The notes under the pieces are model-generated. The model worked only from the letters and a program-made list of their open reading frames with translations, had not been told where the DNA came from and did not search any database. 64,000 nucleotides of DNA from Candidatus Bathyarchaeota archaeon (GTDB lineage: Archaea > Thermoproteota > Bathyarchaeia > Bathyarchaeales > Bathycorpusculaceae), in the NCBI GenBank assembly GCA_963811105.1, contig CAWEPZ010000011.1, forward strand, positions 1,248,001 to 1,312,000, in the 5' to 3' direction. Positions 3,727 through 60,122 of this stretch are shown in pieces. The position numbers and the translations under genes were made by a program. How positions within the stretch are numbered: the first letter of the stretch is position 1; each line of letters begins with the position of its first letter.

Positions 3727-3811
3727 TCGCCTAATTTTTTCTTTATTTTTCCCTTTATCGTAAAGTTAAATAGCTAATTTATTAGTTAGAGATTTACTTC
3801 GTGTGAGAACA

Positions 3812-5101: not shown

Positions 5102-5151
5102 AGCTTTTAATATTTCTATGAGAATGTTGAGGCACGTTTGGAGAAATAACT

Positions 5152-5787: not shown

Positions 5788-5882
5788 CCTAACCTATTTT
5801 CTTTATCTTCTTTTCGTGGGGCAAAATACTTTAGAAGGCAATGGGAACTAAAATTCTTAGATAAACATTTGGAGCTACGTAA

Positions 5883-6341: not shown

Positions 6342-6355
6342 TGGCATGAAAGACC

Positions 6356-7273: not shown

Positions 7274-7671
7274 CTTAAAAACAACCTCTATATAGACTAA
7301 TTATTAGACTAAATACTATTTTGAGAGCTTAAATAAACTACAAAAACGAAAGACTTCTCAGAAGGGTTTGCAAATAAAAAAAACAAAAAATCATCATACA
7401 AAGCCAAAGCGCTATGGTGAGACGTTCATTTGTAAAACGCTGTTCAACACGTTTGGTAAAGGGTAGAATTATGAAGGAAGAAATGAATCGTAAAAGGAAA
7501 GCGAAGGGCAGAAACGCGGATCTTGTAGATTGGCTCTTAGCGATTGATTCAAGCTTTATATAAAAAAATTTCAGAAGCAAATTTGCGAAAAAGCTATGAG
7601 CATGAAGCTACCTGTAAGAGGCATTAATAGAAGGGCTATATGCGAAATAGCCCAATAATGTAAAAAGGAGA

Positions 7672-8349: not shown

Positions 8350-8438
8350 GCATCAACTTTTCTTAATTTTTAACTTTTTATGCCTAATTGAATTCTTTAT
8401 ATTCTCAAGGGGTTGCTGAAAATCCGGCTTTTTGTCAC

Positions 8439-9446
8439 TTAGGAAGCACTCATGTTTTTTTCTTTGCCACTAACCAACAGTACCAACCCAAGGAAAACAA
8501 AAACTAAACACCACAAATTCACATTATGTGGTGGACCTATCATTTCGTACCATACGTTGGGATGGGGTGCGTATCCTCCTGTAAGATAAAAGTAGAGCAA
8601 GTTAAAAATGAAGTAACCACCGAAAGCCATCATTGTAACACCCAAACCTCTCAAAGATGGTTTGCTGCCTTGCATCTTTGGGGCTGGAAAAGTAAGCTTC
8701 AAAATAAACAGGGCTAATGCCAACAGCCCCAAAACTGTTATAATAAAACTTGCGAAGTTTATTGGCCCAAATAGGAAGCTCCATCCATATTGGCCTCGAG
8801 CACGGTCAAACGGAACCATGTTTCCTAGCCACGCCATAGAATAACTGAACCAAAAAACCACTAGGACATAAGTAAATGCAGTTAGAGAACTCCATTTAAC
8901 GATATCTTGAGTTAAACCAACTACGACTTTCGATCTGAGTTTAAACAGGACAATCGGGATAGTCGTAACCGTCGCAAGTGTGGGGATAGCGGCCACGTAC
9001 AGCAAAATCAAAGGTGGAGTATGGTCAAAATAGAAGACGCTTCCATTAGCGAAATAATAAGCAAAAGCTGTGATTGTAGAAGGAATTAGAGATAAGAAAT
9101 ATATTCCCTCCAAAGTTAAGGCAGCACCAACTTTCCCTTTTACCACTGAAAGGGCATTCTCTTTTTTCCACCAAAACAGAGCAGCCGCATAAAATGCAAA
9201 AAAGCCTGCCACCGCACGAATAATCAAACCTAATGTTCCGGCAACTCCTTCACCGGAGTAATATAAGACCATCCACCACAGGGGTCCCTGCGAAAGCTGC
9301 TGGTAAACATAAGAGTTTGAAATGTAGCTAATGCTACCGATTATTCCTTCAATTGCCCAATATAACGCTAACCCAAAGTAAACTGAAACAGCAATTAAGA
9401 TGCCCAGCGGGATAGTTTTTTTCATCAGGCTCACACCAAGGCACAA
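8439..9446 (-). CDS. Multi-pass membrane hypothetical protein (start possibly 9425)
   Basis: 335-aa ORF with about 8-9 hydrophobic segments. Confidence 0.75.
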   Translation of the reverse strand: MCLGVSLMKKTIPLGILIAVSVYFGLALYWAIEGIIGSISYISNSYVYQQLSQGPLWWMVLYYSGEGVAGTLGLIIRAVAGFFAFYAAALFWWKKENALSVVKGKVGAALTLEGIYFLSLIPSTITAFAYYFANGSVFYFDHTPPLILLYVAAIPTLATVTTIPIVLFKLRSKVVVGLTQDIVKWSSLTAFTYVLVVFWFSYSMAWLGNMVPFDRARGQYGWSFLFGPINFASFIITVLGLLALALFILKLTFPAPKMQGSKPSLRGLGVTMMAFGGYFIFNLLYFYLTGGYAPHPNVWYEMIGPPHNVNLWCLVFVFLGLVLLVSGKEKNMSAS

Positions 9447-44050: not shown

Positions 44051-44174
44051 GCCGGGGTGGCGGAGTGGTTATCGCGCCAGCCTCGAGAATTGTAAAAAAG
44101 AGGGCTAAGACCGAAAGGCAAGATAGCTGGTGGGCTTAGTGCTCGCAGGGGTTCGAATCCCTTCCCCGGCGCCA
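44051..44174 (+). tRNA. tRNA-Ser(CGA) with 37-nt intervening sequence in the anticodon loop (44088-44124)
   Basis: Acceptor GCCGGGG/CCCCGGC plus G73-CCA, anticodon stem CCAGC/GCTGG, CT-CGA-G, long variable arm TGGGC-TTAGT-GCTCG, T-loop TTCGAAT. Confidence 0.92.
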
Positions 44175-44401
44175 TTTTACCATTTAGAGCCAGGATGAAC
44201 TTGTTATACCAAAATAACCTATATGCTGCCTTATTTACTTATTGCCTTAACACTTTCAATGGCACTCGCGCTATCTGAATTCCCTTCAAATAAGCAAATT
44301 TTATATAAAGGCACAGTCTAAAAAGGAAGATAGATAAACCCCGAAAATCGGGTAGAAAAAAATTTTTCTAAACAAAGTTGTATCCTATTGAAGGTTAAGC
44401 C

Positions 44402-44836
44402 ATGATCTCGGACATTTCCAAAGGAACAGGAACAAAACTCTCCAGAAACGCCATTATACTTGCTATAATGATGATTGCGAACGTCGTGATAATCATCCTC
44501 TTAACTCCAATCGGCTTTGAGACCCGCCCGATATCCTCCTTGAAGACGCTCGGCTACATCGCGATTACTACCATTTTTGTCGGTCTCGCACTGGATCTGA
44601 CGTCAATCGTCCTCCTTCTCTTCAAGAGAGTTAGAGTCAGGTTGGCTTCGAGTCTGACGATCATCAGCTCGGTCCTCTTCTTCCTGATCATTTCGGTAGA
44701 TCGAACCGGTTCTTTCTTCTCGGTACCAACCCCTCCTGCAATTAACACCCTCGAATACCTCTTCACTGCCATACTAATCATAACTGTCTTCATAGCGTCA
44801 TTGGTTTACAGATGGAGTAAGACCTCTTCAAGCTAA
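44402..44836 (+). CDS. Four-TM membrane hypothetical protein
   Basis: 144 aa, LLTPIGFETRP motif, four hydrophobic segments; more C-rich codon usage than the core genes. Confidence 0.75.
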   Translation: MISDISKGTGTKLSRNAIILAIMMIANVVIIILLTPIGFETRPISSLKTLGYIAITTIFVGLALDLTSIVLLLFKRVRVRLASSLTIISSVLFFLIISVDRTGSFFSVPTPPAINTLEYLFTAILIITVFIASLVYRWSKTSSS

Positions 44837-44925
44837 TGACTTCAGTCGAACTCCAAACACAGAACACAGACAGGCCAGCATTTCGACAAATCGGACGGAA
44901 CGCTTTCTTGGATAGTCCTTGAACG

Positions 44926-45078
44926 CTCGATAGCCTCAACTTAGAGAAGCTCGGATTCAAGCATTCAGTACTCGCAGACACAGGCAGACCGTCTTATCAT
45001 CCCTCAGACCTTCTCAAGCTCTACGTTTACGGATACCTCAACCAGGTAAGATCAAGCCGGAAACTGAGAAAGAATTGA
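44926..45078 (+). pseudogene. IS1182-family transposase N-terminal fragment (DUF772 region)
   Basis: Translates LDSLNLEKLGFKHSVLADTGRPSYHPSDLLKLYVYGYLNQVRSSRKL, then stops. Confidence 0.85.
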
Positions 45079-45079
45079 T

Positions 45080-45499
45080 CTAAATTATTTCTGATTCATC
45101 TGTTGTCATAACAGAAAATTTAATTTGTTTGACTGGTTTGTTGGCCTTCAGCCCATCAATCAATTCCTTTAATCGGCTGGTCGGGCCTTTAATTACCATA
45201 ACCTCAAGACAACTAGTATCAGTCAGATGAGAATGAAGATAAGCCGTAATCATATCGCTGAATTCGTGTTGAAGTCTAAACAGTTCCTCGTTCTTTTCTT
45301 CTTTATTATAAAGAACCGAGATAGTGGCGATTACATTGCCTTTTTGTTCATCGAGCTTTTTGTATTCGGTTAAGTAACTTCGGAGCGCTTGTCTGAGGAC
45401 TTCGGATCTAGTTGCAGATTTTTGCTCTCCTAGCACTGCATCTAATTCTTCAAGCAACTCCGTAGGCAATGAAAGACTGATAATGCTCATTTTTGTCAC
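45080..45499 (-). CDS. nikR: NikR-family metal-responsive regulator
   Basis: RHH N-terminus IISLSLP...RSEVLRQALR; C-domain QHEF...LHSHL...CLEV (His/His/His/Cys ligands). Confidence 0.88.
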   Translation of the reverse strand: MTKMSIISLSLPTELLEELDAVLGEQKSATRSEVLRQALRSYLTEYKKLDEQKGNVIATISVLYNKEEKNEELFRLQHEFSDMITAYLHSHLTDTSCLEVMVIKGPTSRLKELIDGLKANKPVKQIKFSVMTTDESEII

Positions 45500-45625
45500 C
45501 TTTCATTATGTTTTATTGTTCCAGTTTAATAAATTGCTCAGCTAAGATGCGTTTATGTCTCGAGGTATTCACTGGTAATTATTATCAGAGGGCTGTTAAA
45601 TCTCAGTTCCTCAGAAAAAACGCTT

Positions 45626-45657
45626 AGTTATTAAAAAAATGGCAAAACTTAATAACT
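45626..45657. promoter_or_regulatory. Putative NikR operator
   Basis: Perfect inverted repeat AGTTATTAA-N14-TTAATAACT (equivalent to TTATTA-N16-TAATAA), about 38 bp upstream of the SBP start codon. Confidence 0.7.
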
Positions 45658-45694
45658 TCTCAAGGCTATGGGCTTTTAGGAAGGAAGTGTTTTC

Positions 45695-46633
45695 ATGAGG
45701 AAAAGAACTTACGTAATAGTCGTAGTTTTGGTAGCAATAATCCTCGCAGGAACTGCTTTAACGTTATATTTTTCAAATAGTACAACGCCCGGCACAAGTT
45801 CAAAATTAAAAGTTGTTGCAACATTTTATCCATTGTATGATTTTGCACAAAATGTAGGGGGCAACAGAACTGACGTCTCAATCCTTGTTCCTGAAACTGT
45901 TGATGTGCATGCTTTTGAACCAACGCCATCTTCAATAGCAGAGGTCTCAAGTGCAGACGTGTTAATTTACGACGGAGCTGGACTAGAACCATGGATTCAA
46001 GACGTAATTAGTGCAGCTGGAAACACAAAACTTATCCAAGTAGACTCAAGCCAAGGAATCAACCTCCTTCCAGTACCATCACAATTTCAAAGAGGTAACC
46101 AAACAATTGACCCTCACATCTGGCTTGATCCCTTAAACGCAAAACAACAAGTAAACAATATTCTTCGAGGATTAATCAAGGCTGACCCTGCTGACAGCCA
46201 GTATTTCACCCAAAATGCACAAGCTTATGACGCTAAATTCGACAACTTGAACTCTTTAGCAATAAACGCCACTACAGACACAGCAACAAAATACTTTGTA
46301 ACCTTCCATGAAGCCTTCGCCTACTTCGCACATCAATATAACGTTACACAGCTTGCGATTTCAGGCCCATTCGAGGAAGAACCAACACCCACTGATATCC
46401 AGAACGTAATTAATGCAATTAACCAATATCACCTAAGATATGTAGGCTATGAATCGCTTGAAAACCAAGCAATATCCCAATCTATCAGCAGCCAAACAAA
46501 CGCGACTCTCATCAACATGAACCCCATCGAAGGGCTGACAACACAAGAAAAAGATAGAGGAGACAACTACATAACTCTCATGCAACAGAACATAAATAAT
46601 ATTCATTTGGCGTTGACTAATGTCGGAACCTAA
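45695..46633 (+). CDS. znuA: Metal ABC transporter substrate-binding protein (cluster A-I, ZnuA/TroA-like)
   Basis: VVATFYPL, VHAFEPTP, DPHIWLDP and HEAFAYF. Confidence 0.9.
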   Translation: MRKRTYVIVVVLVAIILAGTALTLYFSNSTTPGTSSKLKVVATFYPLYDFAQNVGGNRTDVSILVPETVDVHAFEPTPSSIAEVSSADVLIYDGAGLEPWIQDVISAAGNTKLIQVDSSQGINLLPVPSQFQRGNQTIDPHIWLDPLNAKQQVNNILRGLIKADPADSQYFTQNAQAYDAKFDNLNSLAINATTDTATKYFVTFHEAFAYFAHQYNVTQLAISGPFEEEPTPTDIQNVINAINQYHLRYVGYESLENQAISQSISSQTNATLINMNPIEGLTTQEKDRGDNYITLMQQNINNIHLALTNVGT

Positions 46634-47381
46634 ACCAATCGTCGAAATACGCGATCTAAGCGTCAAATATCCAAACGGAGTTATGGCTCTCGAAGGCATA
46701 AACTTAGACGTAAATCAGAAAGACCTGATTGCGCTCATAGGACCTAATGGCGCTGGAAAATCAACACTCCTAAAAGTCATTTTGGGATTAACAAAAGCTA
46801 CAAGCGGCTCAATCAAACTTTTCGGGAGCCCGGACTTAGGTAAAAATCTAAAATATGTCGGTTATGTGCCGCAAAGTGCGCAAGCAAGAGACCCAAACTT
46901 GCCCTTTAGTGTTTATGAGACAGTTATGCTTGGAAGAACTCCAGTTGCAGGGTTATTTCATGGAATGGGCGATAAAGACAGGCAAAAGGTTGAGGAAACG
47001 CTCAAACTCTTTGGAATATATGAGCTTAAAGATAGAAAAATTGGTCAACTCTCAGGTGGTCAATCACAACGTGTTTTCCTGGCAAAAGCGATGGTTGCGG
47101 AGCCCAAATTGCTTTTGCTTGATGAGCCAACTAGCGGGGTAGATACGTCTTCGAAAAAAGAGTTCTATAATATTCTGGATCGCTTAAACAAGGAGCGTGG
47201 GATAACTGTTATTTTATCTTCTCATGACATAGGTGTAATAACAAAGATAGCAAACAGAGTTCTTTGTGTAAACAAGTCACAGTTCTTCTGTGGAGAAAAC
47301 GAAGACTTCTCTGCAAACGTTGAGATTCATAAAATGTACGATCACCCTGTGGAGATTATGGATCATCATGACCATCCTTGA
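46620..47381 (+). CDS. znuC: Metal ABC transporter ATP-binding protein
   Basis: GPNGAGKST, GYVPQ, LSGGQ, LDEPT, SHD and a His-rich C-terminus. Confidence 0.92.
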   Translation: MSEPKPIVEIRDLSVKYPNGVMALEGINLDVNQKDLIALIGPNGAGKSTLLKVILGLTKATSGSIKLFGSPDLGKNLKYVGYVPQSAQARDPNLPFSVYETVMLGRTPVAGLFHGMGDKDRQKVEETLKLFGIYELKDRKIGQLSGGQSQRVFLAKAMVAEPKLLLLDEPTSGVDTSSKKEFYNILDRLNKERGITVILSSHDIGVITKIANRVLCVNKSQFFCGENEDFSANVEIHKMYDHPVEIMDHHDHP

Positions 47382-48207
47382 TGTCCTTTCTTTGCTTCAA
47401 GCACCTTTTATACAACGTGCATTCATCATAAGTATAATTATTGCTATTCTCAGCTCTATCCTAAGCATTTTTATTGTTTTAAAGAAAATCTCATTGATAG
47501 GTGATGGGCTGTCTCACACAGCCTTTGGAGGATTAGCCCTTGGATACTACCTCAGTGTTTTTCCTATTTGGATAGCGGGAATTGTTGTGGTGTTAGGGTC
47601 TATTGGGATCAATAAGGCTTTACGTTCGACAAAGATTTCAGGTGACGCTGCAGTTGCTGTTTTTCTTCAACTTGGTCTTGCAGGAGGCATAACCTTGTTG
47701 AGCCTTGCAAGGGGCTTTGGCGTTAACCTTGAGAGCCTGCTTTTTGGAAGCATCCTGATAGTAAATATGGACCAAATTATAACGGCGGCGGTTGTTGCAG
47801 CAATAGCCCTTGGCATAATTTTTGTATTCTTCAAAGAAATGGTTTACATTACTTTTGATGAAACTCAGGCCCGAGCTGCAGGAATCAAGACATGGGTTTT
47901 TGACTATCTTCTGAGCATTCTCGCCGGTGTGGTTGTAATTATTGCTATACCGATAGTTGGTGTACTCTTAATTTCAGCATTACTTGTGTTACCTGCTTTA
48001 ATAAGCACTCAAATCACAAAATCTTTTAAGCAAACTGTCATCCTTGCACCAATAATTGGCCTTATCACGGTGATATTCGGCATATTGGCATCCGTAATTT
48101 TAGACGCAGCTCCTGGAGGAACAATTGTCCTTGTTGGCTTAGCGATTCTTGCAATAGTTTTTGTGGCAAAAAGAATCCAGAGTGCTATGAATAATCCAGA
48201 AAAATGA
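47368..48207 (+). CDS. znuB: Metal ABC transporter permease
   Basis: GDGLSHTAF, LLFGSIL, TFDE, VGVLLISALLVLP and PGGTIV. Confidence 0.92.
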   Translation: MTILDVLSLLQAPFIQRAFIISIIIAILSSILSIFIVLKKISLIGDGLSHTAFGGLALGYYLSVFPIWIAGIVVVLGSIGINKALRSTKISGDAAVAVFLQLGLAGGITLLSLARGFGVNLESLLFGSILIVNMDQIITAAVVAAIALGIIFVFFKEMVYITFDETQARAAGIKTWVFDYLLSILAGVVVIIAIPIVGVLLISALLVLPALISTQITKSFKQTVILAPIIGLITVIFGILASVILDAAPGGTIVLVGLAILAIVFVAKRIQSAMNNPEK

Positions 48208-48311
48208 GGCTGAATGTAGTAGAAGAATCTTAAAAATTAACAAACACTTAGAAAAAAAGTATGGAGAACACACTGCTGAAAAAAAGCGGTTTCGAACCTT
48301 AGACAGTGTGA

Positions 48312-48450
48312 GTCTCTACCGGGCTCATCCCCAACCAAGCATTTTCCTTATTTTCAAAGCGGCTTACTAGTAAATTGGGGTTCGAATCTCTTCCCCGGCG
48401 CCATTTTTTAGAGCTGATTTCAAGGCTATTTTTTAGAATCAAGTATAATT
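48312..48450 (+). repeat. 139-bp direct repeat, copy 1 (contains att copy 48377-48404)
   Basis: Matches 50518-50656 with 8 substitutions by manual alignment. Confidence 0.92.
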
Positions 48451-48601
48451 TAACCCTATTTAGCATTTCTTTCAAAACAATCCAAATTTGAGAAGGATTT
48501 CTTAATAGTAAAAATTCGCGAATTCGCAACTTAGTTCAATTTAAGGCAAGATCGTTCGATTAGAATTTAGTCGGTGAAGCCGCTGGGTCCCAGACCCAAA
48601 T

Positions 48602-48731
48602 GAGAGTGTATAAAAACTCAAATTAAGTTTTTGAAATTGCGTCTATATCTGAAAACACACCATGAAGCTCCCACCAAATCACAATAAACTTAGTAATTTT
48701 CTGAAGTTGAAATCAGTTTTTACACAGTCTC
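48602..48731. mobile_element. MITE-like element (130 bp) with IS1182-type terminal inverted repeats
   Basis: GAGAGTGTATAAAAACT ... AGTTTTTACACAGTCTC, a 15/17 inverted match, with no ORF inside. Confidence 0.7.
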
Positions 48732-48909
48732 AAAAGGGTTCGAAACCTTTCAAGATTAGTTGGCACGCTGTTATATTTTTTGCCCTGCTATTTTCTTGAT
48801 TAAAATTTAATAAAACCCAAACCAAAATTTTTCATGTAATTCTGTATATATATATTGGATAAGGGTATTATTTAGTTAAATAAGGTTTATTTTTTATAAG
48901 GTTAAAGTT

Positions 48910-50461
48910 ATGCCCGTTAACCCAAATAATTCTAAAGTTTCAAAAGAGCCCACCAAAGCAGCCGTTGTGCATAAGAGCTTGCTTGGAATTAAGAAAAAGT
49001 ATGATGCTCTTTTTAACCAAAACATTAACGGATTGGCTTACTGCAAAACAATATTCGATGACAGCAATCAGCCCATTGATTATGTTTTTCTTGAAGTTAA
49101 CAATGCATTTGAGAAGCAAACGGGTCTAAAAAAAGAAAACGTTGTGGGTAAACACGCAACCCAAATAATTCCAAACATCAAAAATTCAGCTTTCGATTTT
49201 ATAAACATCTACGGTAAAGTTGTGCTTACTGGAGAACCAGTTGAAACCTACCAAGAAGACCTAAAACGTTGGCACTCTGTCTATGTTGTCAGCCCAAAAA
49301 AGACCTTTTTCCTCTCTCTGTTTACAGATATAACAAACCGCAAGCAAGCTGAAGAAACATTAGCTTATCAGGCTGATTTATTGTCAAAGGTTCATGAAGC
49401 GCTTGTTGGCATTGATGCAAACTACATAATTACGTATTGGAATAGTGCTGCTGAAGAAATATTTGGCTGGACAAAAGAAGAAGTACTTGGAAAAAACTCT
49501 GAAGAATTACTGCAAACAAAAATTGAAGGCTCCTCACGCGATGAAGGAATAACTAAGTTGCTGGCGCCGGGTCATTATGAAGGCGAAGTGCAGTATTTAC
49601 GCAAGGATGGTACATACTTTTTTGCTGATGTTAATGCCGTCACCATAAAAGACGCTAATGGGAAACTGCAGGGCATTATGACTGTTGCTCGAGACATTAC
49701 TGAACGTAAGCAGATGGAAGCTAAACTTGAAAGATATAGCAGGCACTTGGAGGATTTGGTTGAGGAGCGAACTAAACAGCTCAGTGATGGTGAACGGTTA
49801 GCTGCTATCGGTCAAACTGCGGGCATGGTTGGACATGACATACGCAATCCTTTGCAGGCTATCACCAGCGATGTCTACTTGGCTAAAACAGAGTTGGCTT
49901 CGACATCTGAAAGTGAAGAGAAAAAAGAACGCATTGGAAAGCTTGGATGAGGTTGAAAAGAACGTAGAGTACATCAACAAGATTGTGGCGGACCTACAAG
50001 ACTATGCGAGATCCATCAAGCCAATGGTACAGGAAACTGACCTGGAGGCGATCATTGAAAATTTGCTGCTAAAGAATGACGCCCCCAAGAACATCAAAGT
50101 CTCTTCCAGCGTAGAGAATGACTCAAAGAAAATCGTGGCTGACCCTGATTTGTTAAAACGGATTCTGTACAACTTGATGACGAATGCTGTGCAGGCTATG
50201 CCGGAAGGCGGAAAGCTAAGCGTCCACGCTTACAGAGACGGCGGCGACTATGTCATAACGGTGAAGGATACAGGTATGGGCATACCAAAAGAAGCGAAAA
50301 GCAAGTTGTTCACGCCGCTGTTCACCACTAAAGCTAAGGGTCAAGGCCTCGGCTTAGCTGTCGTTAAACGGATGACTGAAGCGATAGGCGGCACAGTATC
50401 ATTTGAGAGTCAAGAAGGCAAAGGAACAACTTTCACAGTACGTTTGCCGACTTTGAATTGA
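48910..50461 (+). pseudogene. PAS-PAS sensor histidine kinase, frameshifted
   Basis: PAS/PAC motifs and H-box GHDIRNPL in ORF1; N, G1, F and G2 boxes (NAVQA, DTGMG, FTTK, GLGL) in ORF2. One extra A in the A6 run at 49921-49926. Confidence 0.85.
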
Positions 50462-50517
50462 CATTCAAACTTAGAAAACTGTTTTTGCTTAGTAGACTCG
50501 AACTCGAAACGGTTAGG

Positions 50518-50656
50518 GTCTCTACCGGGCTCATCCCCAACCAAGTATTTTCCTTATTTTCAAAGCGGCTTACTAGTAAATTGGGGCTCGAATCCCTTCC
50601 CCGGCGCCATTTTTTAGAGCTAATTTAAAGGTTATTTTATATAATCAAGTATAATT
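50518..50656 (+). repeat. 139-bp direct repeat, copy 2 (contains att copy 50583-50610)
   Basis: See copy 1 at 48312-48450. Confidence 0.92.
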
Positions 50657-50770
50657 CTGCCGCCAAGTCTATCTGTGAGAGTGAAGGGAGTAAGAGGTCC
50701 TGTGGCGGATGGAGAACTGCCAAAATGTAAAGAATTTGGAATAAGGATAGCAAATCAACTAAATCCCTAA
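50657..50770 (+). pseudogene. C-terminal fragment of a flavodoxin-like protein
   Basis: Translates LPPSLSVRVKGVRGPVADGELPKCKEFGIRIANQLNP*, starting exactly at the repeat end. Confidence 0.6.
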
Positions 50771-51069
50771 ATCCAAATCATAGAAAAAGAGATAATTTAG
50801 GACTTATTAGAATTGACGGTCTCTATGATTCTAGACGTTGTTTGTGGTATGGAAATTGATCAGAAAAACTCAAAACGGGAAACAGAGCATAAAAATAAAG
50901 TTATCGAATGAATCGCCCGATCAGTACGGCTGTTTTTTTGTTTGGATTTCTCCTAATTCTTTTTTTAATATCCTGTACATTTTTTAAGCATATTCTAAAT
51001 TATTAGGTTAAGACAAAAAAAATTGAAAAATGGAAAGAAAATGGCGATTTCTTAACTTTAGTAGTCGAG

Positions 51070-52686
51070 TTATTTCATTATTGCTTTGAGGTCTTCGTCT
51101 GCTGTTTTAATCGGCATGATGTTGAACTTCTCAACCAGTACCTTTAGTATGTTTGGCGTTATGAATGCGGGCAAGCTTGGTCCTAACCGAATGTCTTTGA
51201 TGCCGAGATACAGCAAGGACAGCAAAATAGCAACCGCCTTCTGTTCATACCACGAGATCACCAGTGAGAGAGGCAAATCGTTGACACCAACTCCGAAAGC
51301 GTCTGCCAAAGCCTGCGCAATTTTTACGGCTGAGTACGCGTCATTGCATTGTCCGACGTCGAGTAACCGTGGGATGTCATCGATTGTGCCTAAGTCTTTG
51401 TCGAAAAAACGGAATTTGCCGCATGCCAACGTTAGGATGATGGTGTTGCTTGGTGCTTTCTCCACGAATTCTGTGAAGTAGCTGCGTCCAGGTTTTGCAC
51501 CGTCACATCCACCCACTAAAAGGAAGCGTTTAATATGCCCGCTTTTGACGGATTCAATGACTTTGCCTGCTACACTTAAAACAGCGTTTCTACCGAATCC
51601 GACCAGAACGGTTTTGCCTTCTACGTCGTCTGTGAAGCCTGGCATCGCTAATGCTTTGTTAATGACTGGTGAGAAGTCTTTGCCTTCGATGTGTGGTACG
51701 CCTGGGTAACCGACCGGTCCAGTTGTGAAGATGTTGCCTTTGTAGCTTTCGACGGGTCGTTGGATGCAGTTGGTTGTCATGAGTATGGCGCCTGGGAACT
51801 GGGCGAATTCTTTCTGTTGGTTTTGCCATGCGGTGCCGTAATGACCGTAGAAATTAGAGTACTTCTTGAGTCCGGGGTAACCATGGGTAGGAAGCATTTC
51901 GCCGTGAGTGTAGATGGTGATGCCTTTGCCCTGCGTTTGCTTTAGAATCTCTTCTAAGTCGATTAGGTCGTGTCCTGAAACAACGATAGCTTTGCCCTTT
52001 TTGTGTCCCAACGGCACTTTTGTGGGAACTGGATGTCCATAGGTTTCCGTGTTGCCTGCATCGAGAAGTTCCATGGCACGGATGTTGATTTCACCGCACT
52101 TCAAAACTAAACCCACAAAATCGTTTACTCCAAGCGATTTGTCAAATGGAGCCACTAATCCTTGATGGATGAAATCGAAGACTTTCGGGTCTTTTTTGCC
52201 TAAAAGATACGCATGGTAAGAGTAAGCTGCAACTCCTTTTAACCCATAAGTTAGAAGCCACTGCAACGAATGAAGGTCCGGGTCAATTGTCGTGTCGGAG
52301 TTTATTCCGTGTTGTTTGCCCTGTGCAACTAAGTCTGCCATGGTGTTTTCCAACGGCAAATAAGTTGCTTTGACGCCTAATTTTTTATGCAGTTGGTCGT
52401 GTAGTTCAGCGGTTTTTTTGATGTAGGCAATGATTGCTTCTGGATCAAAATTCACGTTAGTTAAGGTTACGAAGAGTGCTTCAGCGGTGAAGACGTTGAT
52501 TTTTTCGTCTTTGAAGCCAGCTTCGTCTGCTTTTATAACAAGTTGGCTTAGTTCCCTTAGCTTGTAAACTAAGAGGTCTTGAAGGTTCGCAACGTTGGCT
52601 GTTTTGCCGCAGACCCCAGCGATTGTGCAGCCTGTGCCTTTGGCTGTTTGTTCGCATTGGTAACAGAACATTTGATTCTGACTCAT
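51070..52686 (-). CDS. hcp: Hybrid cluster protein (hydroxylamine reductase)
   Basis: MFCYQCEQT...GC...GVCGK, SGHDL, YTHGEMLP, TTNC, GGCDG, ACGKFRF, GQCND and WYEQKA. Confidence 0.97.
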   Translation of the reverse strand: MSQNQMFCYQCEQTAKGTGCTIAGVCGKTANVANLQDLLVYKLRELSQLVIKADEAGFKDEKINVFTAEALFVTLTNVNFDPEAIIAYIKKTAELHDQLHKKLGVKATYLPLENTMADLVAQGKQHGINSDTTIDPDLHSLQWLLTYGLKGVAAYSYHAYLLGKKDPKVFDFIHQGLVAPFDKSLGVNDFVGLVLKCGEINIRAMELLDAGNTETYGHPVPTKVPLGHKKGKAIVVSGHDLIDLEEILKQTQGKGITIYTHGEMLPTHGYPGLKKYSNFYGHYGTAWQNQQKEFAQFPGAILMTTNCIQRPVESYKGNIFTTGPVGYPGVPHIEGKDFSPVINKALAMPGFTDDVEGKTVLVGFGRNAVLSVAGKVIESVKSGHIKRFLLVGGCDGAKPGRSYFTEFVEKAPSNTIILTLACGKFRFFDKDLGTIDDIPRLLDVGQCNDAYSAVKIAQALADAFGVGVNDLPLSLVISWYEQKAVAILLSLLYLGIKDIRLGPSLPAFITPNILKVLVEKFNIMPIKTADEDLKAIMK

Positions 52687-52780
52687 ACTTTTCACCTTGG
52701 TTAACTATAATGGCTTCAATGCAGATAGGGTTTACCCCGAACATGCGAGGGATTACAGAAAAACATTCACAGATGCCGGG

Positions 52781-53407
52781 TTAGATTTCCCGTTTAAAAT
52801 AATGCTCCAGCAACCTGCGCATACCCCGCCGCATAGTCTCAGAAAGCGTCGAGGTGCTAATTCTAAGCTTCGTCGCAAGCTCCTCCATACCAATTTGCCG
52901 CGGATAATCAAAAAACCCACTCTTCAGAGCTAACCAAAAAATCCTCTCCTGGTTCTCGGTTAAGACACCGATTTGCTGCTCAAACTTGCCGATTTTACGC
53001 ACGTTAACTTTGTGCCCAGCTTTTTCTAAGTCATCTATTATGCCTTTGTAGGCTTCAAAAGTCGGCACCATGAAGCTGTAGGTTATGATGTTCTCGTGCA
53101 TGCTTTTGCCCGACACCAAAAAAGCGTCGTGTGCCAAAATTGTGTTGCAGACTTCGCAGCCTTCGCTCTCCAGCCAAACCGCTGATTTGCCTTCCACATG
53201 GCCTTTAGCTGCCAGTTCTTTGGGGACTTTGTGGGCTTGGTCTTCGCCGACATCCATTAGGTGCCGCACGCAGCCGCCGCTTGAGCTGCGCACGTCAACA
53301 ACTTTTAGGTGGCTAAACCCCAAGGAAGCAAGTTTCTTTACCATTTTACACTGCTTATTTTCAACTTCAATTACAACATGATAAGGTTCACGCCAAGCAT
53401 CGACCAA
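52781..53407 (-). CDS. Transcriptional regulator with C-terminal bacterio-opsin-activator-type HTH (HTH_10)
   Basis: LTENQERIFWLALKSGFFDYPRQIGMEELATKLRISTSTLSETMRR; CxxC in the sensor domain. Confidence 0.88.
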   Translation of the reverse strand: MVDAWREPYHVVIEVENKQCKMVKKLASLGFSHLKVVDVRSSSGGCVRHLMDVGEDQAHKVPKELAAKGHVEGKSAVWLESEGCEVCNTILAHDAFLVSGKSMHENIITYSFMVPTFEAYKGIIDDLEKAGHKVNVRKIGKFEQQIGVLTENQERIFWLALKSGFFDYPRQIGMEELATKLRISTSTLSETMRRGMRRLLEHYFKREI

Positions 53408-53872
53408 ACCAATCAGCCTCGTCTGTCTAAACTCAAAAACAAGCAGTTAAACATACGTCTATTCGACCAACCATAAATTGGTTTTCTGATAGTTTTTTTA
53501 CAAAGAAAAACTGGAGCTTGAACTGCTACTTAATCCAAAAGGTAATTGGTAATTAGATTAACATATTGTCTATGGGTTGGTAGATCTATAGTGTAATTTT
53601 GTGACGAGTTTAACCCGAAACTTTTGCATCAACTCTTAGGAGAATACTGGTAATGATGATTAAAGCTGTTGAACGTGAGACTTTCTTAATTAGCGTCTTC
53701 TGAACTTCAGATGTGAATTTTGCCGGTTCTGCACTTAAACTGCGTAAGTCTCTATGGTTCTGTATTCAAAGGGTTCAAGACCTATATACCCTCAAGCGAT
53801 TAAAGCAAACTCACAGAAGAAACCCCCTGTAAGAAGAGGAGTCGGTATGTTTACTTCAAAATAATCCCGGGT

Positions 53873-53913
53873 TTACTAGTAAATTGGGGTTCGAATCCCT
53901 TCCCCGGCGCCAT
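53873..53913 (+). repeat. att copy: TTACTAGTAAATT plus a perfect 28-bp tRNA-Ser 3' end
   Basis: GGGGTTCGAATCCCTTCCCCGGCGCCAT at 53886-53913 is identical to 44148-44175. Confidence 0.93.
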
Positions 53914-53947
53914 CAACTTACTTTTGGACAAATCCCCGGCTAGCGGG

Positions 53948-54740
53948 TTATTTGGGCTTTTTGAAGATTTTGCTCTTGTCGTAATCGCAAACGTATTGGA
54001 ATCCTGCTTCTAGCAGTTTGCGTGCCTCTTCAAGTGTTCAAGCGACTTTGACAACATAATCCTGATCGCCGAAGTCTATCAATTGGGTATATCGCATCGT
54101 ATTCTTGATGTTCTTGTGACCAAGCGTTCGCATAAAGTGAAGGATATCTTTAGTTCTGTGGTTCTCCATAGTGGCTTTCCAGTGTCGCATAGTATGAAAA
54201 GTTATTCTTAACAGTCGCGGGTTTTTACTTTTATCGGCAGCTATTTTTCTGTTGCGCTCGAAAAGTCGAGCTGTTGTCGCTAGTTTGCTCCTCCAAAGAC
54301 GAACTTGTTTCTCTTTGGCAGGTCTTCTATTCGTTCCAGTAGTGTGAGGTTCTTAGGATTCTGGGATTGCTATGTTTTTCGGGTGTTATCCTTACGGTTC
54401 TTTTTTCAGCATCGATGTCTGTCCATTCTATTTGCCAGCCTTCGCCTCGCCTTGCACCTGTTTCTTTCAGCAGCTGGGTAGATGTGCCTGTCTATTTTCC
54501 TAATGAGGCGATTAAGTAGTCGATTTCACTTTCTGTCGGTATGAAAGATAGCTTTTCGACGGCTTTGATTCTGGGTGGATTCCATGTTCCGCCTAGTGAA
54601 TTGAGGGTTCTTAGGAATCTTCTTAGGCACTGAGCGTATTGAACCAGACTTTCTACGGGTGTGAAGAATAAGACGAAGTCAGAGTTTAGAAAGCGGATGA
54701 TGATTTCGATGTTAACCTTGGAACAGTGAAATTTTCGCAT
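53948..54740 (-). pseudogene. Tyrosine recombinase/integrase, disrupted
   Basis: LLKETGARRGE (R), TPEKHSNPR (K), ITFHTMRHWKAT (HxxR), LGHKNIKNTMRY (H, Y). In-frame TAG and TGA stops and a deletion/frameshift. Confidence 0.9.
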
Positions 54741-54805
54741 CCATCACAGGCCTAACCGGAATTATTATCGGGCTATTTGTAGGGAAAAACCTTGATTCTT
54801 ACCAG

Positions 54806-55138
54806 GTGGAACCAAGCTTAATGGCGAGGGGCAAACCTTGTACAGTTGAAGATGAAAGGCAACTTCGACAATTCTTAACAGAAAAAAAGTCTAGGCGTTC
54901 TATTGCAAAGATTCTGGGCAAATCCCTGACTTCTGTGCAGATGAAAACATCGCGCTTAGGCTTAGTAGTTGTTGATGGCGTGTTTTTTTCACTCCCATCA
55001 ACAACTACCTTTGATAAGTTAATTTTGCCAATTGAGTTACCTTCAATTGAGCAAGAACTAAAGATCTTGGTTGCAGCTTTGAAATATCTTGAAACGCCGA
55101 ATTTAGATAAAACTGATGTTTTGCGTTTACGCGGCATA
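54806..55138 (+). pseudogene. Truncated HTH-type element protein, fused in frame to a DUF3800 remnant
   Basis: MARGKPCTVEDERQLR...RSIAKILGKSLTSVQMKTSRLGL; sequence character changes abruptly at ~55139. Confidence 0.55.
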
Positions 55139-55766
55139 GACCTCGGTTTTTCTGAAAAAGCAACAAAATATTTTATAGTAGCTTACGTAGAATGCGAGAC
55201 ACCGGTAAGACTCCGAACAGAGCTAAGACGCCTTCTAAAACGTCTACACCAAAAAGAAAGATACTCTAAGAGCCGAAACGAGCTCAAATTCTCAAGAATG
55301 GATGAATATTGCAGAAAAAGCGCCCTAACAAAAAATAATCGAGTGTGACGCTTCACTAGGCGCCGTCGTTTTAGAGAAGGCACGTGTAAAAGACGAACTA
55401 AGGAAAGATCCGCCAATTCTCTACAACTGGTTTCTAGTCCACAACATAATGCTCTCGCTTATTCCCCAAATCACCGCTGGAAACAAAATACAGATAAACT
55501 TCGACAAAAGCCTCCCAATGTAGAGAATAAACCAATTCAATTCATACGTAACAAACAAGGCCAGCTACCTCTTATATGAAACAGGAAACAGCCCCCCACC
55601 CAACTGTATTTTATTAAATCACGTAGCTTCTGAAAAAAAAGAATTCTGCCTGCAAGCAGCCGACGCAATAGCAGGAGCATACTTCCAAAAATATGAAAAA
55701 CAAAACGATGAATATGTCAAAATCATTGAGCATAAAGTTGGTTACTTCAAATATCTCTGGAAATAA
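55139..55766 (+). pseudogene. DUF3800-family protein, N-truncated and frameshifted
   Basis: DLGFSEKATKYFIVA, NELKF, then in other frames ...LYNWF...FDKS...CLQAADAIAG...KYLWK*. The start of the DESGD motif is missing. Confidence 0.75.
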
Positions 55767-55773
55767 CAGAAAC

Positions 55774-55843
55774 GCGACCCCTATCCTAATACTCCAATCC
55801 CACAAACGCGCAGGCATCATTGCCTCGGATAGGACTTACTCGC
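55774..55843 (+). ncRNA. Putative structured RNA downstream of the DUF3800 gene
   Basis: Nested pairing GCGA/TCGC and CCTATCC/GGATAGG, with an inner hairpin AGGCA-TCAT-TGCCT. Confidence 0.6.
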
Positions 55844-56104
55844 AATAAAACAATATTACCTTAAAATTATTTAAGCCTTATTCTTCATGAATCCACTTCC
55901 CCTTCTTCATTAATCTTAATCCTTTGGTAACCCCTAAGGTAACCCCTTCAAAGCTGAGGCTGTAAAATTCTGCAAACAAAAGCACAGATGCCACGCGAAC
56001 CCGCGTTTGAACCCTCGGATATAGAATAGTGAAATTACTTTGAGGGTTCTTAAGCTTCAATGCCTTTACTGTCTATAATATGAAATAGTAAAAAGAGGAA
56101 TAAT

Positions 56105-56353
56105 ATGAGTAAATCAAGGCAAGGTGGCAGTTACGAGGGAAAACGTGGTCATGGCAAGGGTTTTAAACGTTGTCCAGTCGAGTTGGGAGAAGAATTAGAA
56201 GCAGAAATTACGGAATTGAGCTCAAAAGGGGAAGGCATAGCTAGAAATCAAGGCTTTCCAATTTATGTTGCCGACGCAAAACCTGGAGACCGAGTAAAAA
56301 TAAAGATAACCAGAATAACCGACAAAGCAGCAAACGCACAAGTAGTCAAATAG
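56105..56353 (+). CDS. Single TRAM-domain protein (archaeal RNA chaperone / cold-shock type)
   Basis: PVELGEELEAEITELSSKGEGIARNQGFPIYVADAKPGDRVKIKIT. Confidence 0.9.
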   Translation: MSKSRQGGSYEGKRGHGKGFKRCPVELGEELEAEITELSSKGEGIARNQGFPIYVADAKPGDRVKIKITRITDKAANAQVVK

Positions 56354-56651: not shown

Positions 56652-58292
56652 TTGGCATATTTAACTCAAACCCAAAGTGGTCAACCTGTACTCATTCTGA
56701 AGGAGGGGACCTCTCGAAGCAGAGGGAAAGAAGCCCAGAGAAACAATATAATGGCCGCACGAGTAATTGGCGAAGTACTCAAAACAACCTTAGGCCCAAA
56801 GGGCATGGACAAAATGCTCATCGACAGCCTAGGCGACATAACAATAACAAACGACGGCGCTGCAATCCTAAAAGAAATAGACGTCGAGCACCCAGCAGCA
56901 AAAATGATGGTTGAAATCGCCAAGACACAAGACGACATGGTGGGCGACGGAACAACAACCGCCGTGGTGTTGGCCAGTGAACTTCTCAAGAAAGCTGAAG
57001 AATTATTGGATCAGAACATTCACCCAATCATACTTGTCAGTGGATACCGCAAGGCATCTCAAAAAGCAATCGAAATCATAGAGAAAATCGCGGTGCCCAT
57101 CGACGTGGAAGATCAAAAAACAATGATGAAAGTCGCCTTGACGTCCATGGGAAGTAAAGCCGTGGGTGGTGCTAAAGAGCACTTTGCAGAAATCGCCATA
57201 GAAGCTGTAAAGCAGATATCCGAGAAACGTGGAGACAAGACAATAGCAGACATAGATAACATACAGCTGGTGAAGAAGACGGGAAAAAGCCTCATCGAGA
57301 CGCAACTCGTCAGAGGCATAATCGTTGACAAAGAAGTCGTCCATCCAGCGATGCCCCGAAAAAAAGAAAACGCGAAAATCGCACTTTTAGATTCTGCATT
57401 GGAAATTGAGAAAACCGAAATGAGCGCCGAAATACGCATACGCGATCCGAACCAAATGAAAGCTTTCCTCGACCAAGAGGACAGCATGCTCAAAGACATG
57501 GTGACCAAGATCAAAGCTTCAGGCGCCGCTGTTGTGTTCTGCCAGAAAGGATTAGACGACATGGTTCAACACTACCTATCTAAAGAAGGAATAATGGCTG
57601 CCAGACGTCTCAAGGAGTCAGACATGGAGAAACTCGCAAGAGCAACAGGCGGAAGAGTTACCTCCAATTTGAACGATTTGAAGACGACAGACTTAGGTTT
57701 TGCCGGCTTGGTCGAAGAGCGCAAGATCGGCGACGACAAAATGATCTTCGTTGAAAAATGCAAAGATCCTCACTCAGTAGCCATACTGATACGAGCAGGG
57801 CTTGAACGAATGGTGGATGAAGCTGAAAGAGCAATTATCGACGCGCTTTCAGTTGTTTCAGATGTTGTTGAAAACAGCAAAATCGTCGCAGGCGGAGGAG
57901 CCGCAGAAATCGAAGTTGCAAAAGAACTGCGCAAATACGCCAACAAAGTCGGCGGAAGAGAACAATTAGCCGTTGAAGCATTCGCAGATGCAATGGAAGT
58001 AATCCCACGTACACTCGCAGAAAACGCTGGGCTAGATCCAATAGATGTACTAGCGGAACTAAGATCAGCACACGACAAAGAAACCGGCAAATACATGGGC
58101 ATAAACGTTTTCACGGGAAAAGTGCAGAACAGCATCGACAACGGCGTAATCGAACCAATCGCCGTTAAAGAACAAGCAATCAAATCCGCAGCAGAATCAG
58201 CAGCCATGATACTACGCATTGACGATGTCATAACATCCAAAGCGCCAAAAGGCGGACCAGCCGGTCGGAATGCCCGGCGGTCCCGAAGGTGA
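56652..58292 (+). CDS. ths: Thermosome (group II chaperonin) subunit
   Basis: [30 protein letters not shown] and ILRIDDVI. Confidence 0.96.
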
Positions 58293-58454: not shown

Positions 58455-60122
58455 TTAATATTCTGGTGGCATGCCGCCGTAGCCACCGCCTGGCATTCCG
58501 CCAGGAGGCATGCGTGGAGCTTTCATCTTTCCAGAGGCGATGACATCATCGATCCTCAGTATCATTGTGGCCGCTTCGTTGGCTGACTTGATTGTCTGTT
58601 TCTTAACAGCTAAGGGTTCGTAGACTTCTAGGTCTTTCATATCTCTGATTTTTCCTTCCAAAACGTTGACACCTGCCCATTTTTCGCCCTTCTCATGGCG
58701 GGTTCTGAGCTCTAATAGAAAATCTATAGGGTCAAGGCCTGCGTTTTCGCCCAATGTTAATGGCACAATTTCCATGGCTTCGCCGAAGCTTCGGATGGCA
58801 AGTTGTTCTCTGCCTGGTAGCGTTTCAGCATAGCTTCTTAGTGCTTTAGCGATTTCCATTTCTGGAGCTCCCCCTCCCGCAACGATCTTGGGTTCCTGAA
58901 CTACGTCTCGGACTACGCATAAAGCATCGTGAAGTGATCGTTCAGCCTCATCAACAAAGCGTTTATCCGCACCTCGTATGAGAATAGCTACTGCATGGGG
59001 GTTTTTGCATCCTTCGATGAAGACCATCTTGTCGTTGCCGATCTTCCTCTCCTCAACGATTTCTGCAAAGCCTAGGTCGCTTTTTAAGAGGCTTTCTATG
59101 TTAATAACAGGCTTTCCGCCGGTGGCTTTTGATAGTTTCTTCATATCCGACTCTTTGACTCGTTGTACGGCTAAGACTCCTTTCCTAGCCAAGAAGTGCT
59201 TGACCATGTCATCTATGCCTTTCTGGCACATAACGACGTTGGCACTTGAGGAAACTATCTTTTCAACCATTGTCTTAAGCATTTTCTCTTCTTCTTGTAG
59301 GAAAGATTGTATCTGTTCTGGACGTTCAATGTTGATTTTAGCGTCGAACTCGGTCTTTTCAATCTCAAGTGCACTTTCCAATAATGCTATGTTTGCTTTT
59401 TCCACCCGTTTAGGCATGTCTGAGTGCACAACTTCCTTGTCAATAACTAATCCCTCGATGAGTTTGGTTTCAGTCATGGATTCGCCTGGCTTTTTCTCCA
59501 CCATAATATCGTCTAAGTCTACTGTGTAGTTTTCTCCAACTTTTTTGGCTACATGTAAAACGGCATTAACTACTATGTCTGCAAGTTGTTCTTTGTTCGT
59601 AGCCACCAGCTTACTGGCCATAGAGGTTGCCGCAATCTTTACCAAAAACTCTTTTCCTGTAGGTTTAACGGAAAACGCGATTTTTTCAAGGGTTTCAAGA
59701 GCTTTATCGGCTGCTTTGCTGTATCCTTCGACAATTAGGATGGGGTGTATGCCCTTGTTTATCAAGTCTTCAGCTTTTCCTAAGAGTTCGCCGGCAACTA
59801 TCACCGATGTGGTGGTTCCGTCTCCCACTTCCGCGTCTTGGGTCTTAGCTACTTCAACCATCATTTTAGCAGCTGGATGGTCAATATCCATCTTATCAAG
59901 GATAGTCCGTCCATCACTGGTAATGATTACATCGCCAGAACTATCCACCAACATCTTATCCATGCCTTTGGGGCCTAACGAACTTTTTATGGCTTCCGCG
60001 ATTGTTTTTGCTGCCATAATGTTGTTGCGTTGGACATCCCTGCCCTTAGATCGTCCAGATCCTTCCCTCATAATTAGAACAGGCACGCCACCTGTTTGCG
60101 AAGACAAAAAATATTCCTCCAT
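58455..60122 (-). CDS. ths: Thermosome (group II chaperonin) subunit, second paralog
   Basis: [25 protein letters not shown] and a GGMPGGGYGGM tail. Confidence 0.96.
   Translation of the reverse strand: MEEYFLSSQTGGVPVLIMREGSGRSKGRDVQRNNIMAAKTIAEAIKSSLGPKGMDKMLVDSSGDVIITSDGRTILDKMDIDHPAAKMMVEVAKTQDAEVGDGTTTSVIVAGELLGKAEDLINKGIHPILIVEGYSKAADKALETLEKIAFSVKPTGKEFLVKIAATSMASKLVATNKEQLADIVVNAVLHVAKKVGENYTVDLDDIMVEKKPGESMTETKLIEGLVIDKEVVHSDMPKRVEKANIALLESALEIEKTEFDAKINIERPEQIQSFLQEEEKMLKTMVEKIVSSSANVVMCQKGIDDMVKHFLARKGVLAVQRVKESDMKKLSKATGGKPVINIESLLKSDLGFAEIVEERKIGNDKMVFIEGCKNPHAVAILIRGADKRFVDEAERSLHDALCVVRDVVQEPKIVAGGGAPEMEIAKALRSYAETLPGREQLAIRSFGEAMEIVPLTLGENAGLDPIDFLLELRTRHEKGEKWAGVNVLEGKIRDMKDLEVYEPLAVKKQTIKSANEAATMILRIDDVIASGKMKAPRMPPGGMPGGGYGGMPPEY

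Follow-up and report, generated by a model that had tools for sequence, protein, structure and literature searches.

A tandem array of small integrase-less elements, CIME-like in organisation, at the 3' end of a tRNA-Ser(CGA) gene in a soil archaeon of the Bathyarchaeia

Cis-mobilizable elements (CIMEs) have been described from accretion arrays of streptococcal ICEs (integrative and conjugative elements) as well as IMEs (integrative and mobilizable elements). In the available portion of PMC5704250 they are presented as segments that are bounded by attachment (att) sites and are without integration and transfer genes; they are described as decayed bacterial ICEs or IMEs that move with a conjugative helper, and gene capture has been linked to them in the literature. 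The locus described here was found in the metagenome-assembled genome (MAG) of a soil archaeon of the Bathyarchaeia (GenBank assembly GCA_963811105.1; estimated contamination 4.3%). The window, i.e. the whole stretch of DNA that was analysed, comprised 64,000 nucleotides (contig CAWEPZ010000011.1, positions 1,248,001 to 1,312,000 of the forward strand), and coordinates refer to it unless a contig is named. Within it three segments, E1, E2 and E3, were stacked behind a tRNA-Ser(CGA) gene and separated by copies of the 3' end of that gene. That this is a real accretion array of integrase-less elements, and that these are members of a widespread Bathyarchaeia family with a short palindromic arm, was well supported. 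With a probability of roughly two in three, the locus was read as an accretion array of three small non-autonomous, CIME-like integrative elements at the tRNA 3' end; we infer that their entry was sequential, that the recombinase acted in trans, and which integrase it was.

Bathyarchaeal array and bacterial CIMEs in accretion arrays were compared feature by feature, and the latter are the closest described kind. As in CIMEs, att sites were kept on both sides of E1, E2 and E3 and integration and transfer genes were absent; the elements were likewise stacked in tandem at the 3' end of the gene they target, and neighbouring elements were separated by chimeric att junctions. Unlike CIMEs, they reside in an archaeon, no conjugation genes were seen, elements of the family ranged down to 0.9 kb, the cargo consisted largely of ordinary chromosomal genes, and the shared signature was a 12-bp palindrome adjoining the core. 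Decay from an integrase-bearing parent, the origin described for CIMEs, was seen in only 1 of 28 complete elements of the family, and no remnant was present in E1-E3.

Islands in tRNA genes as defined by Islander are also bounded by a regenerated tRNA gene and by a 3' fragment that has been displaced without change of orientation, with a crossover in the T-arm region. According to the available part of PMC4383910, Islander demands an integrase for each island, and under this rule 2168 genomes yielded only 4 cases of tandems of at least three; all three islands described here would fail it. In archaea, repeated tandem use of a single att site has been reported, as have integrated elements without an integrase (PMC6563490 and PMC8371274, each in its available part). 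Among the features by which tRNA-targeting tyrosine-integrase elements are recognised, a regenerated tRNA with direct repeats and an empty site were found at this locus, and an integrase inside the element was not. Gene capture in archaeal chromosomes by way of SSV-type integrases, with the integrase gene split on integration, was reportedly described by She et al. in 2001. Unlike such class I elements, the integrase gene here is unsplit, and the captured units are small and carry a shared specific arm. No description of such arrays in Bathyarchaeia was found in literature searches or in the available parts of PMC11697101 and PMC10848311, whose supplementary tables may list integrated elements.

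The tRNA-Ser(CGA) gene lies on the plus strand at 44051..44174 and includes a 37-nt intron. It was called by Rfam (44051-44171, 47.6 bits) and was identified as Ser(cga) by ARAGORN with introns allowed, the default ARAGORN run having missed it; the sequence to the left of the core aligned with the tRNA of relatives. The core, J0, consists of the last 27 nt of the gene (44148-44174, plus strand). A search with the terminal 28-mer of the tRNA gave four plus-strand matches, at 44147 (the tRNA), 48376, 50582 and 53885, and none of 100 shuffled sequences contained any match. Read as the 27-mer GGGG...CCA, which begins one base later, the core had no mismatches at 44148 and 53886 and one each at 48377 and 50583, exactly as in the preliminary description of this DNA. 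J1 (48377..48403, plus strand, C13T) and J2 (50583..50609, plus strand, T5C) were provided with attP-like arms on both sides; J3 (53886..53912, plus strand) was a perfect copy and was followed by the ancestral flank. Successive core copies were spaced 4229, 2206 and 3303 nt apart, in agreement with the segment sizes of ~4.2, ~2.2 and ~3.3 kb given before.

Each of the three displaced copies was touched on its left by TTACTAGTAAATT, which occurred exactly three times in the 64 kb (48364, 50570 and 53873); its chance expectation in the window was 0.25, and three copies were reached in 0 of 100 shuffles. The tRNA itself carried GCTTAGTGCTCGCA at this place, so that the earlier statement that the arm precedes all copies except the tRNA was borne out. 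TTTT(ACCA)TTTAGAGC was located directly 3' of the tRNA, copy 1 and copy 2. The earlier account had noted this shared arm and understated the likeness: 90% identity extended across 159 nt of copies 1 and 2 (48292-48450 against 50498-50656), and they are therefore whole attP-like junctions with arms on both sides.

The order of events was approached through relatives in which the array is missing. In the sister species G039, G013 and G011 the tRNA-Ser(CGA) gene was joined directly to tcaacatacttttggacaaa and an integrase gene, the sequence present behind J3 in our genome; for G001, also a sister species, the alignment was confined to the initial ~45 nt of this flank. The right flank of J3 thus corresponded to the relatives' tRNA flank, and its left flank was the palindromic arm, against tRNA body in the relatives, while the tRNA of this genome matched the relatives on the left and diverged immediately after the core. 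These alignments indicate that 44175-53912 (9.7 kb) was inserted at the tRNA end, that an integrase-bearing element was there first, and that J3 is the original tRNA 3' end, displaced downstream. The earlier proposal of insertion at a regenerated tRNA att site was upheld in this way.

Genes in the window were identified with Pfam on open reading frames (ORFs) of at least 60 aa, and every stop-to-stop frame of 40 aa or more was searched with a hidden Markov model (HMM) of the integrase family. By neither search was an integrase found in E1-E3. The sole integrase homology in the window (53951-54605, minus strand) belonged to a pseudogene behind J3 (53951..54743), which was recognised from its frames and by Pfam, tblastn and the family HMM. 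It corresponds to residues 205-424 of the 424-aa orthologue, distributed over three frames, and is without the N-terminal ~204 residues. The description of the segments as integrase-less, with a broken gene beyond the last att copy as the only integrase, held on both points.

The junction was then sought in other genomes. The genome collections contained one genome per species, so that species and not strains were compared. Arm plus core, with at most two mismatches, was found in 22 of 120 genomes of the genus. The core alone occurred in 107 of the 120 and in at least two copies in 24 of them; the maximum, five copies, was reached by the present genome. Exact scans for the junction were positive for 11 stretches of species genomes and for 38 contigs from metagenomes, and gave no match for arm plus core in viral contigs. 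Among 55 distinct junction contexts upstream conservation was limited to the 15 nt adjoining the core (tTTTACTaGTAAAtT); the contexts had been selected by this 15-nt motif, so that its conservation is partly by construction, and the lack of conservation further upstream is not. Many left arms began with TTTTACYAGT, which is a direct repeat of the right arm.

Arrays at tRNA-Ser(CGA) differed in content and order. That of G038 contained elements of 5.4 kb (cupin/DinB/SDR/OYE/MBL), 2.6 kb (TrmB/Rieske) and 3.6 kb (NikR-ZnuABC), and that of G058 an 8.6-kb element (Alba/CDC48/TBP) and a 21-kb contractile injection system. In G076 a 7.2-kb element with TrmB, a homologue of the E1 gene orf144, an insertion sequence (IS) and Band_7 was followed by an open-ended element; G048 had elements of 7.1 kb and 6.0 kb, and G090 a single 3.3-kb element followed by the ancestral flank. 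The NikR-ZnuABC block was the first element here and the third in G038. The searches that had been proposed for arm plus core thus yielded varied cargo, and its content and order were found to vary between species. On the metagenome contigs the elements measured 0.9-8 kb and carried toxin-antitoxin pairs, a PLD nuclease, nitroreductase, a BlaR/BlaI-ABC-HtrA set, esterase, HNH nucleases, PRPP synthetase or a lone histidine kinase. On one contig, L112 (3424-10333), the two subunits of ATP-citrate lyase, isocitrate dehydrogenase and aconitase were located between two tRNA-Ser cores, the second of which was without the palindromic arm. The 21-kb element of G058 (C7:317472-338653; L055:12473 to L056:13654) was a single element at tRNA-Ser with att copies at both ends. 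Its contractile injection system was complete and included sheath, tube, baseplate J, gp25, spike, a PA14 fibre-like protein and an AAA ATPase.

Elements with two bounding copies were taken as complete and were run against Pfam (ORFs of at least 60-70 aa; those overlapped by more than 40% by longer ones were dropped). This set numbered 28, of which 3 came from this genome, 3 from G038, 2 each from G058, G048 and G042, 1 each from G076, G090 and G119, and 13 from metagenome contigs. They spanned 0.9-21 kb with very varied cargo, and Pfam Phage_integrase was detected in 0 of the 28. With the family HMM (frames of at least 40 aa) integrase homology was found only behind terminal copies, except for one fragment inside one element (L104). 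TrmB-like regulators, which recur in the cassettes, were considered as a conserved core gene and were rejected, three of them being only 27-29% alike.

Comparison of the individual parts indicated that modules travel independently of one another and that arms stay conserved beside unrelated cargo; from their sequences, the elements appear to share only their arms, the cargo between them ranging from one gene to the 21-kb contractile injection system. The left arm of E2 (~200 nt) was 81-83% identical to sequences behind tRNA-Ser in G058 and G048, where the cargo was unrelated, and a right arm of ~110-150 nt with the core was 86-92% identical among contig C1 of this genome, G076, G070 and G016. 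The stretch 44148-44875, comprising core, left arm and orf144, was 90% identical to a one-gene element of ~1 kb behind tRNA-Ser(GGA) in G004, and the L3 gene regions of the two genomes were 84% identical. The second module of E1 (45089-48204, NikR-ZnuABC) was 84% identical to the third element of G038 and 70-78% identical to chromosomal copies in four relatives. Since the two modules were found separately elsewhere and are separated here by a fragment of an IS transposase gene, E1 is probably a fusion of two elements.

For E3 a chromosomal source was indicated. The genes for Hcp and the HTH_10 regulator were single-copy in the genome and were present only in E3. In six relatives the hcp/HTH_10 loci had no att copy within ~6 kb, and at least one flank of each mapped to C11:428.8-438.1 kb of the present genome, ~865 kb from E3. 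Hcp was 88-90% identical to the proteins of G001, G010, G011 and G012, and L3 was 91-93% identical to those of the same genomes. On these values the hcp block appears to be the genome's own or to have come from a near relative, a common chromosomal module that now sits in the array. At least some of the cargo would then be native chromosomal DNA.

The proposed mechanism is as follows. E1, E2 and E3 would have entered the 3' end of tRNA-Ser(CGA) by site-specific recombination with a tyrosine integrase, each entry regenerating the tRNA end and moving the previous end downstream. The junction left between two elements would consist of a right arm that ends in the palindrome TTTACTAGTAAA, the 27-nt tRNA core and the left arm of the next element. 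At core positions 5 and 13 the bases were T/C in J0, T/T in J1, C/C in J2 and T/C in J3. This pattern would be explained if newcomers recombined with the tRNA-side site, if the crossover fell between positions 5 and 13, in the T-loop, and if E3 and E1 brought T/C cores and E2 a C/T core; a C5/T13 core variant does occur at one G105 junction. The core differences are thus compatible with sequential entry, and later mutation or a single composite entry would explain them as well.

The recombinase would come in trans from a family of Zn-ribbon-bearing tyrosine integrases, one member of which would provide it; the family sits directly behind tRNA genes in the genus and also on viral contigs, and the member specific for tRNA-Ser(CGA) would be represented by the dead gene behind the array, derived from the older element that was there first. 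This gene was intact in G039 (424 aa, Pfam Phage_integrase), open to the contig end in G013, broken in G011, truncated in G008, and both broken and truncated here. In the G039 integrase a Zn-ribbon at the N-terminus is combined with a Xer-like catalytic domain. The protein stayed under every named-family cut-off (XerA, 69.5 bits with a cut-off of 220; TIGR02249, 58.9 with 265; NF011946, 36.5 with 435), and its nearest solved structure was XerA (E = 3.5e-7). Orthologues at least 76% identical to a 104-aa C-terminal query were all located behind tRNA-Ser(CGA), in G008, G013, G039 and G062; paralogues 44-56% identical to the full-length G039 protein were located behind tRNA-Cys, Arg and Phe/Val. 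Integration leaves the gene unsplit: the G039 ORF (L064:12227-13501, minus strand) is separated on its stop side by 36 nt from the end of the tRNA (12191). Members of the family were also found on six IMG/VR contigs, one of which carried terminase, portal, protease and capsid genes. On IMG/VR contig L126 three tyrosine integrase genes lay within 6 kb (3310-9290), the last of them convergent with a tRNA.

Several results weigh against the interpretation of E1-E3 as CIME-like elements moved in trans. An intact integrase of the Ser(CGA) type was not found in this genome, where intact paralogues (contigs C14, C6 and C8) were 31-39% identical, and 0 of 30 integrase loci lay beside a Ser(CGA) core in five other array-bearing genomes (MAGs, 85-97% complete), where 12 of the 30 adjoined other tRNAs (Cys, Pro, His, Ala); the intact cognate enzyme that the earlier account proposed to look for was thus not recovered. 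The arms of integrase-bearing remnants seem to be different ones, with 'tcaaca/cttactttt' at the side of the integrase and 'ctttcact' at C1:110606 and in G055, so that this integrase is a candidate for recognition of the palindromic arm. The genomes compared represent one per species, and those that are related are dependent samples. Decay does occur, since a fragment of an integrase was present in the L104 element, which consists of a Zn-ribbon ORF and the last 34 integrase residues and resembles an integrase with its middle deleted, and a fragment of an IS in E1. The 9.7 kb could also have entered as one composite and not in three steps. Public reads gave no sign of movement: no junction-bridging contig, excised circle or alternative allele within the species was seen in short contigs of incomplete cover, in which uncovered parts carry no weight; the circular junctions and cassette-less alleles that the earlier account proposed to map were likewise not seen in this material. 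The search had returned 24 runs, each with at most 0.32 of the sampled words, and four of these gave only short Logan contigs. The earlier view of the segments as minimal non-autonomous cassettes mobilised in trans was therefore sustained as regards a recurrent family in which the arm is conserved and the cargo varied (22 of 120 genomes, 38 contigs, an integrase in 0 of 28 elements), and mobilisation in trans is retained as the proposed route.

It was considered unlikely that the segments are integrase-bearing proviruses or integrative elements which lost their integrase and mobility genes, with the array as their graveyard. The available part of PMC8371274 explains integrated archaeal elements without an integrase by its loss after integration, a decaying integrase-bearing element is itself located behind J3, and the L104 remnant and the IS fragment between two modules of E1 that occur separately elsewhere point the same way; decay of autonomous elements accounts for at least one relative and may account for others. 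Against this as the general origin, a Pfam integrase was found in none of the 28 complete elements and a remnant in one, elements occurred down to 0.9-1 kb, below the size of the 1.3-kb integrase gene, and both arms were kept beside unrelated cargo across species, with different arms on the integrase-bearing remnants. The cargo, moreover, consisted of ordinary chromosomal genes at orthologue-like identity, as the Hcp and L3 values for G001 and G010-G012 illustrate.

Native origin of cargo also bears on a quite improbable alternative, in which the junction unit is a dispersed repeat and homologous or occasional site-specific recombination between units moved native blocks to tRNA-Ser without transfer between cells and without a cassette life cycle. 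Six further sites of the genome, none close to tRNA-Ser or an integrase, did carry degenerate arm-plus-core units, the hcp/HTH_10 block resembles the genome's own copy moved by ~865 kb, and a NikR-ZnuABC paralogue on C2 lies ~8 kb from such a unit. Recombination between dispersed units does not agree with an insertion that is base-exact at the tRNA end and regenerates the tRNA, or with an orf144 module and arm 90% identical to the copy at a different tRNA-Ser in G004 against 84% for the L3 region; the znu block was likewise nearer to the G038 element (84%) than to the chromosomal copies of four relatives (70-78%), and the ancestral position of hcp (C11:432.7-433.3 kb) showed no visible scar. 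An assembly artefact, either a chimera or a mis-joined repeat, was judged extremely improbable. The estimated contamination of the MAG and the contigs of several relatives, which end shortly after the L3 gene or the tRNA, would allow for it, but the array lies inside a 1.5-Mb contig, its repeats are short and non-identical, the same architecture recurred in independent MAGs and contigs from many projects, and public contigs at 97-99% identity covered parts of E2 and E3. In the public reads (X2) E2 and E3 were covered at 97-99%, and 45306-48060 was almost uncovered. Loose contig ends at 44191, 45066 and 50448 had sequences that also occurred in other contexts, and no metagenome contig near-identical to E1-E3 was found.

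Beyond the accretion array, a broader interpretation is offered tentatively, as one that may well prove wrong. Bathyarchaeia would possess a cassette system of their own, in which the 12-bp palindrome TTTACYRGTAAA and the 27-nt tRNA-Ser end form a portable signal, provirus integrases circularise and reinsert any chromosomal block so marked, and tRNA-Ser serves as a genus-wide exchange point for adaptive modules. The blocks would extend from a single membrane protein gene to genes of the reductive tricarboxylic acid cycle or a 21-kb injection machine, and the whole would correspond in function to the integron while being assembled from parts of lambda type. The array resembles an integron in that integrase-less modules of varied function are gathered at one site, with a conserved end signal and a content that varies between genomes. 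It differs in that the G039 orthologue is not an IntI (58.9 bits against the TIGR02249 cut-off of 265), that the integrase gene is located behind the last junction instead of the first and is dead, and that the junctions are direct repeats of the tRNA end which do not fold into hairpins. No attC-like hairpin was found in four 90-nt junction strands, 137-198 of 200 shuffles folding as well or better (z 0.5 to 2.1). The elements also occur in both orientations with their own regulators, not in one orientation behind a common promoter; the integron analogy drawn in the preliminary description does not apply in the strict sense.

Bathyarchaeia are among the most abundant uncultured archaea of soils and sediments, and to our knowledge little is known of gene exchange in them. 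The palindrome and tRNA-Ser core provide a sequence-defined signature by which dozens of small integrase-less elements were found across species and in metagenomes. Their cargo is metabolically meaningful and includes metal uptake, hydroxylamine reductase, sensor kinases, toxin-antitoxin and defence-like genes, as well as ATP-citrate lyase/aconitase/isocitrate dehydrogenase and the contractile injection system. If they are moved in trans, the elements would represent a route for the shuffling of ordinary chromosomal modules in archaea, comparable to CIME accretion in bacteria and functionally to integrons, and the intact G039 enzyme with the 27-nt attB would make a testable integrase/att pair. 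Should the elements be decay products and nothing more, the locus remains a clear and datable hot spot of genome variation.

The genes of the three elements corresponded to the cargo stated earlier and were placed on both strands, with regulators (NikR, HTH_10) inside the elements. E1 (44175..48376, plus strand; 4.2 kb, composite, defined by Pfam and repeats) begins with a left arm (44175-~44240) and a 144-aa ORF for a four-helix membrane protein of no family, orf144 (44402-44836, plus strand). A fragment of an IS with a DUF772-like transposase follows at ~44927-45074; it has copies elsewhere in the genome, and public reads continue differently after 45066. The second module consists of NikR (45080-45499, minus strand), ZnuA (45695-46633), an ABC ATPase (46620-47381) and an ABC-3 permease (47290-48207), all by Pfam, and the right arm (48292-48376) ends in TTACTAGTAAATT. 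The DNA of orf144 and its upstream region was 87-91% identical in G004, G016 (two copies) and G013. An IS1182-like transposase gene neighbours the orf144 homologue in G076, and a fragment of that IS was present here and in G016.

E2 (48404..50582, plus strand; 2.2 kb) has a left arm (48404-~48602), a sensor kinase with PAS and HATPase_c domains by Pfam in two overlapping ORFs (48910-49950 and 49829-50461), and a right arm (50498-50582). The G003 homologue of the kinase was a single frame, and contigs from two public runs had a one-letter gap relative to the window within 49822-50448; the frame break may therefore be an assembly error. A 130-nt repeat with inverted ends, like a miniature inverted-repeat transposable element, is located in the left arm region (48601-48730). 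It was 94% and 79% identical to two copies in G076 and was also present in G119. E3 (50610..53885, plus strand; 3.3 kb) comprises a left arm (50610-50656), the prismane/Hcp gene for a hydroxylamine reductase/hybrid-cluster protein (51070-52695, minus strand; Pfam, and 802.8 bits with NCBIfam), the HTH_10 regulator (52781-53407, minus strand; Pfam) and the right arm TTACTAGTAAATT (53873-53885). A reverse-strand tRNA that by eye seemed hidden in the arm upstream of J1 and J2 was discarded, ARAGORN and Rfam calling nothing there.

Degenerate arm-plus-core units of this genome, all away from any tRNA-Ser, were located at C11:147562, 153768, 158882 and 974433, at C13:172213 and 174451, at C2:429044 and at C1:110606 and 113887. 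Some keep a left arm, they adjoin PAS kinases, ABC transporters and radical-SAM genes, and that at C1:113887 is followed by an integrase pseudogene. An att-like match beside an integrase on C14 proved to be an unrelated tRNA. On G004:C33 (L018; 1572 and 4029) and on L097 (663 and 1572) second core copies were located behind sequence like the tRNA body and not behind the arm; tRNA-Ser genes or halves are duplicated in L018 and L097.

Behind the array, the region from 53951 to 55845 is the decayed remnant of an older integrase-bearing element. In addition to the integrase pseudogene it contains an HTH-like ORF of 210 aa (54716-55348, plus strand) without Pfam, PHROG or NCBIfam family, fragments of a DUF3800-like protein (55524-55766, plus strand), and a DUF3800-X RNA (55772-55845, minus strand; Rfam, 60.9 bits) that overlaps the end of these fragments. 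The 210-aa ORF had many tblastn matches in the genome, several of them directly beside integrase genes, and may be a regulator typical of integrase-bearing elements. Right of 54607 nothing was common to the loci of relatives, and a distal att of the older element was not found between 55800 and 56100 by eye or by profile. Further to the right are an ORF with a TRAM domain (56105-56353) and two convergent thermosome (Cpn60/TCP-1) genes (56652-58292 and ~58500-60100) that are 57% identical.

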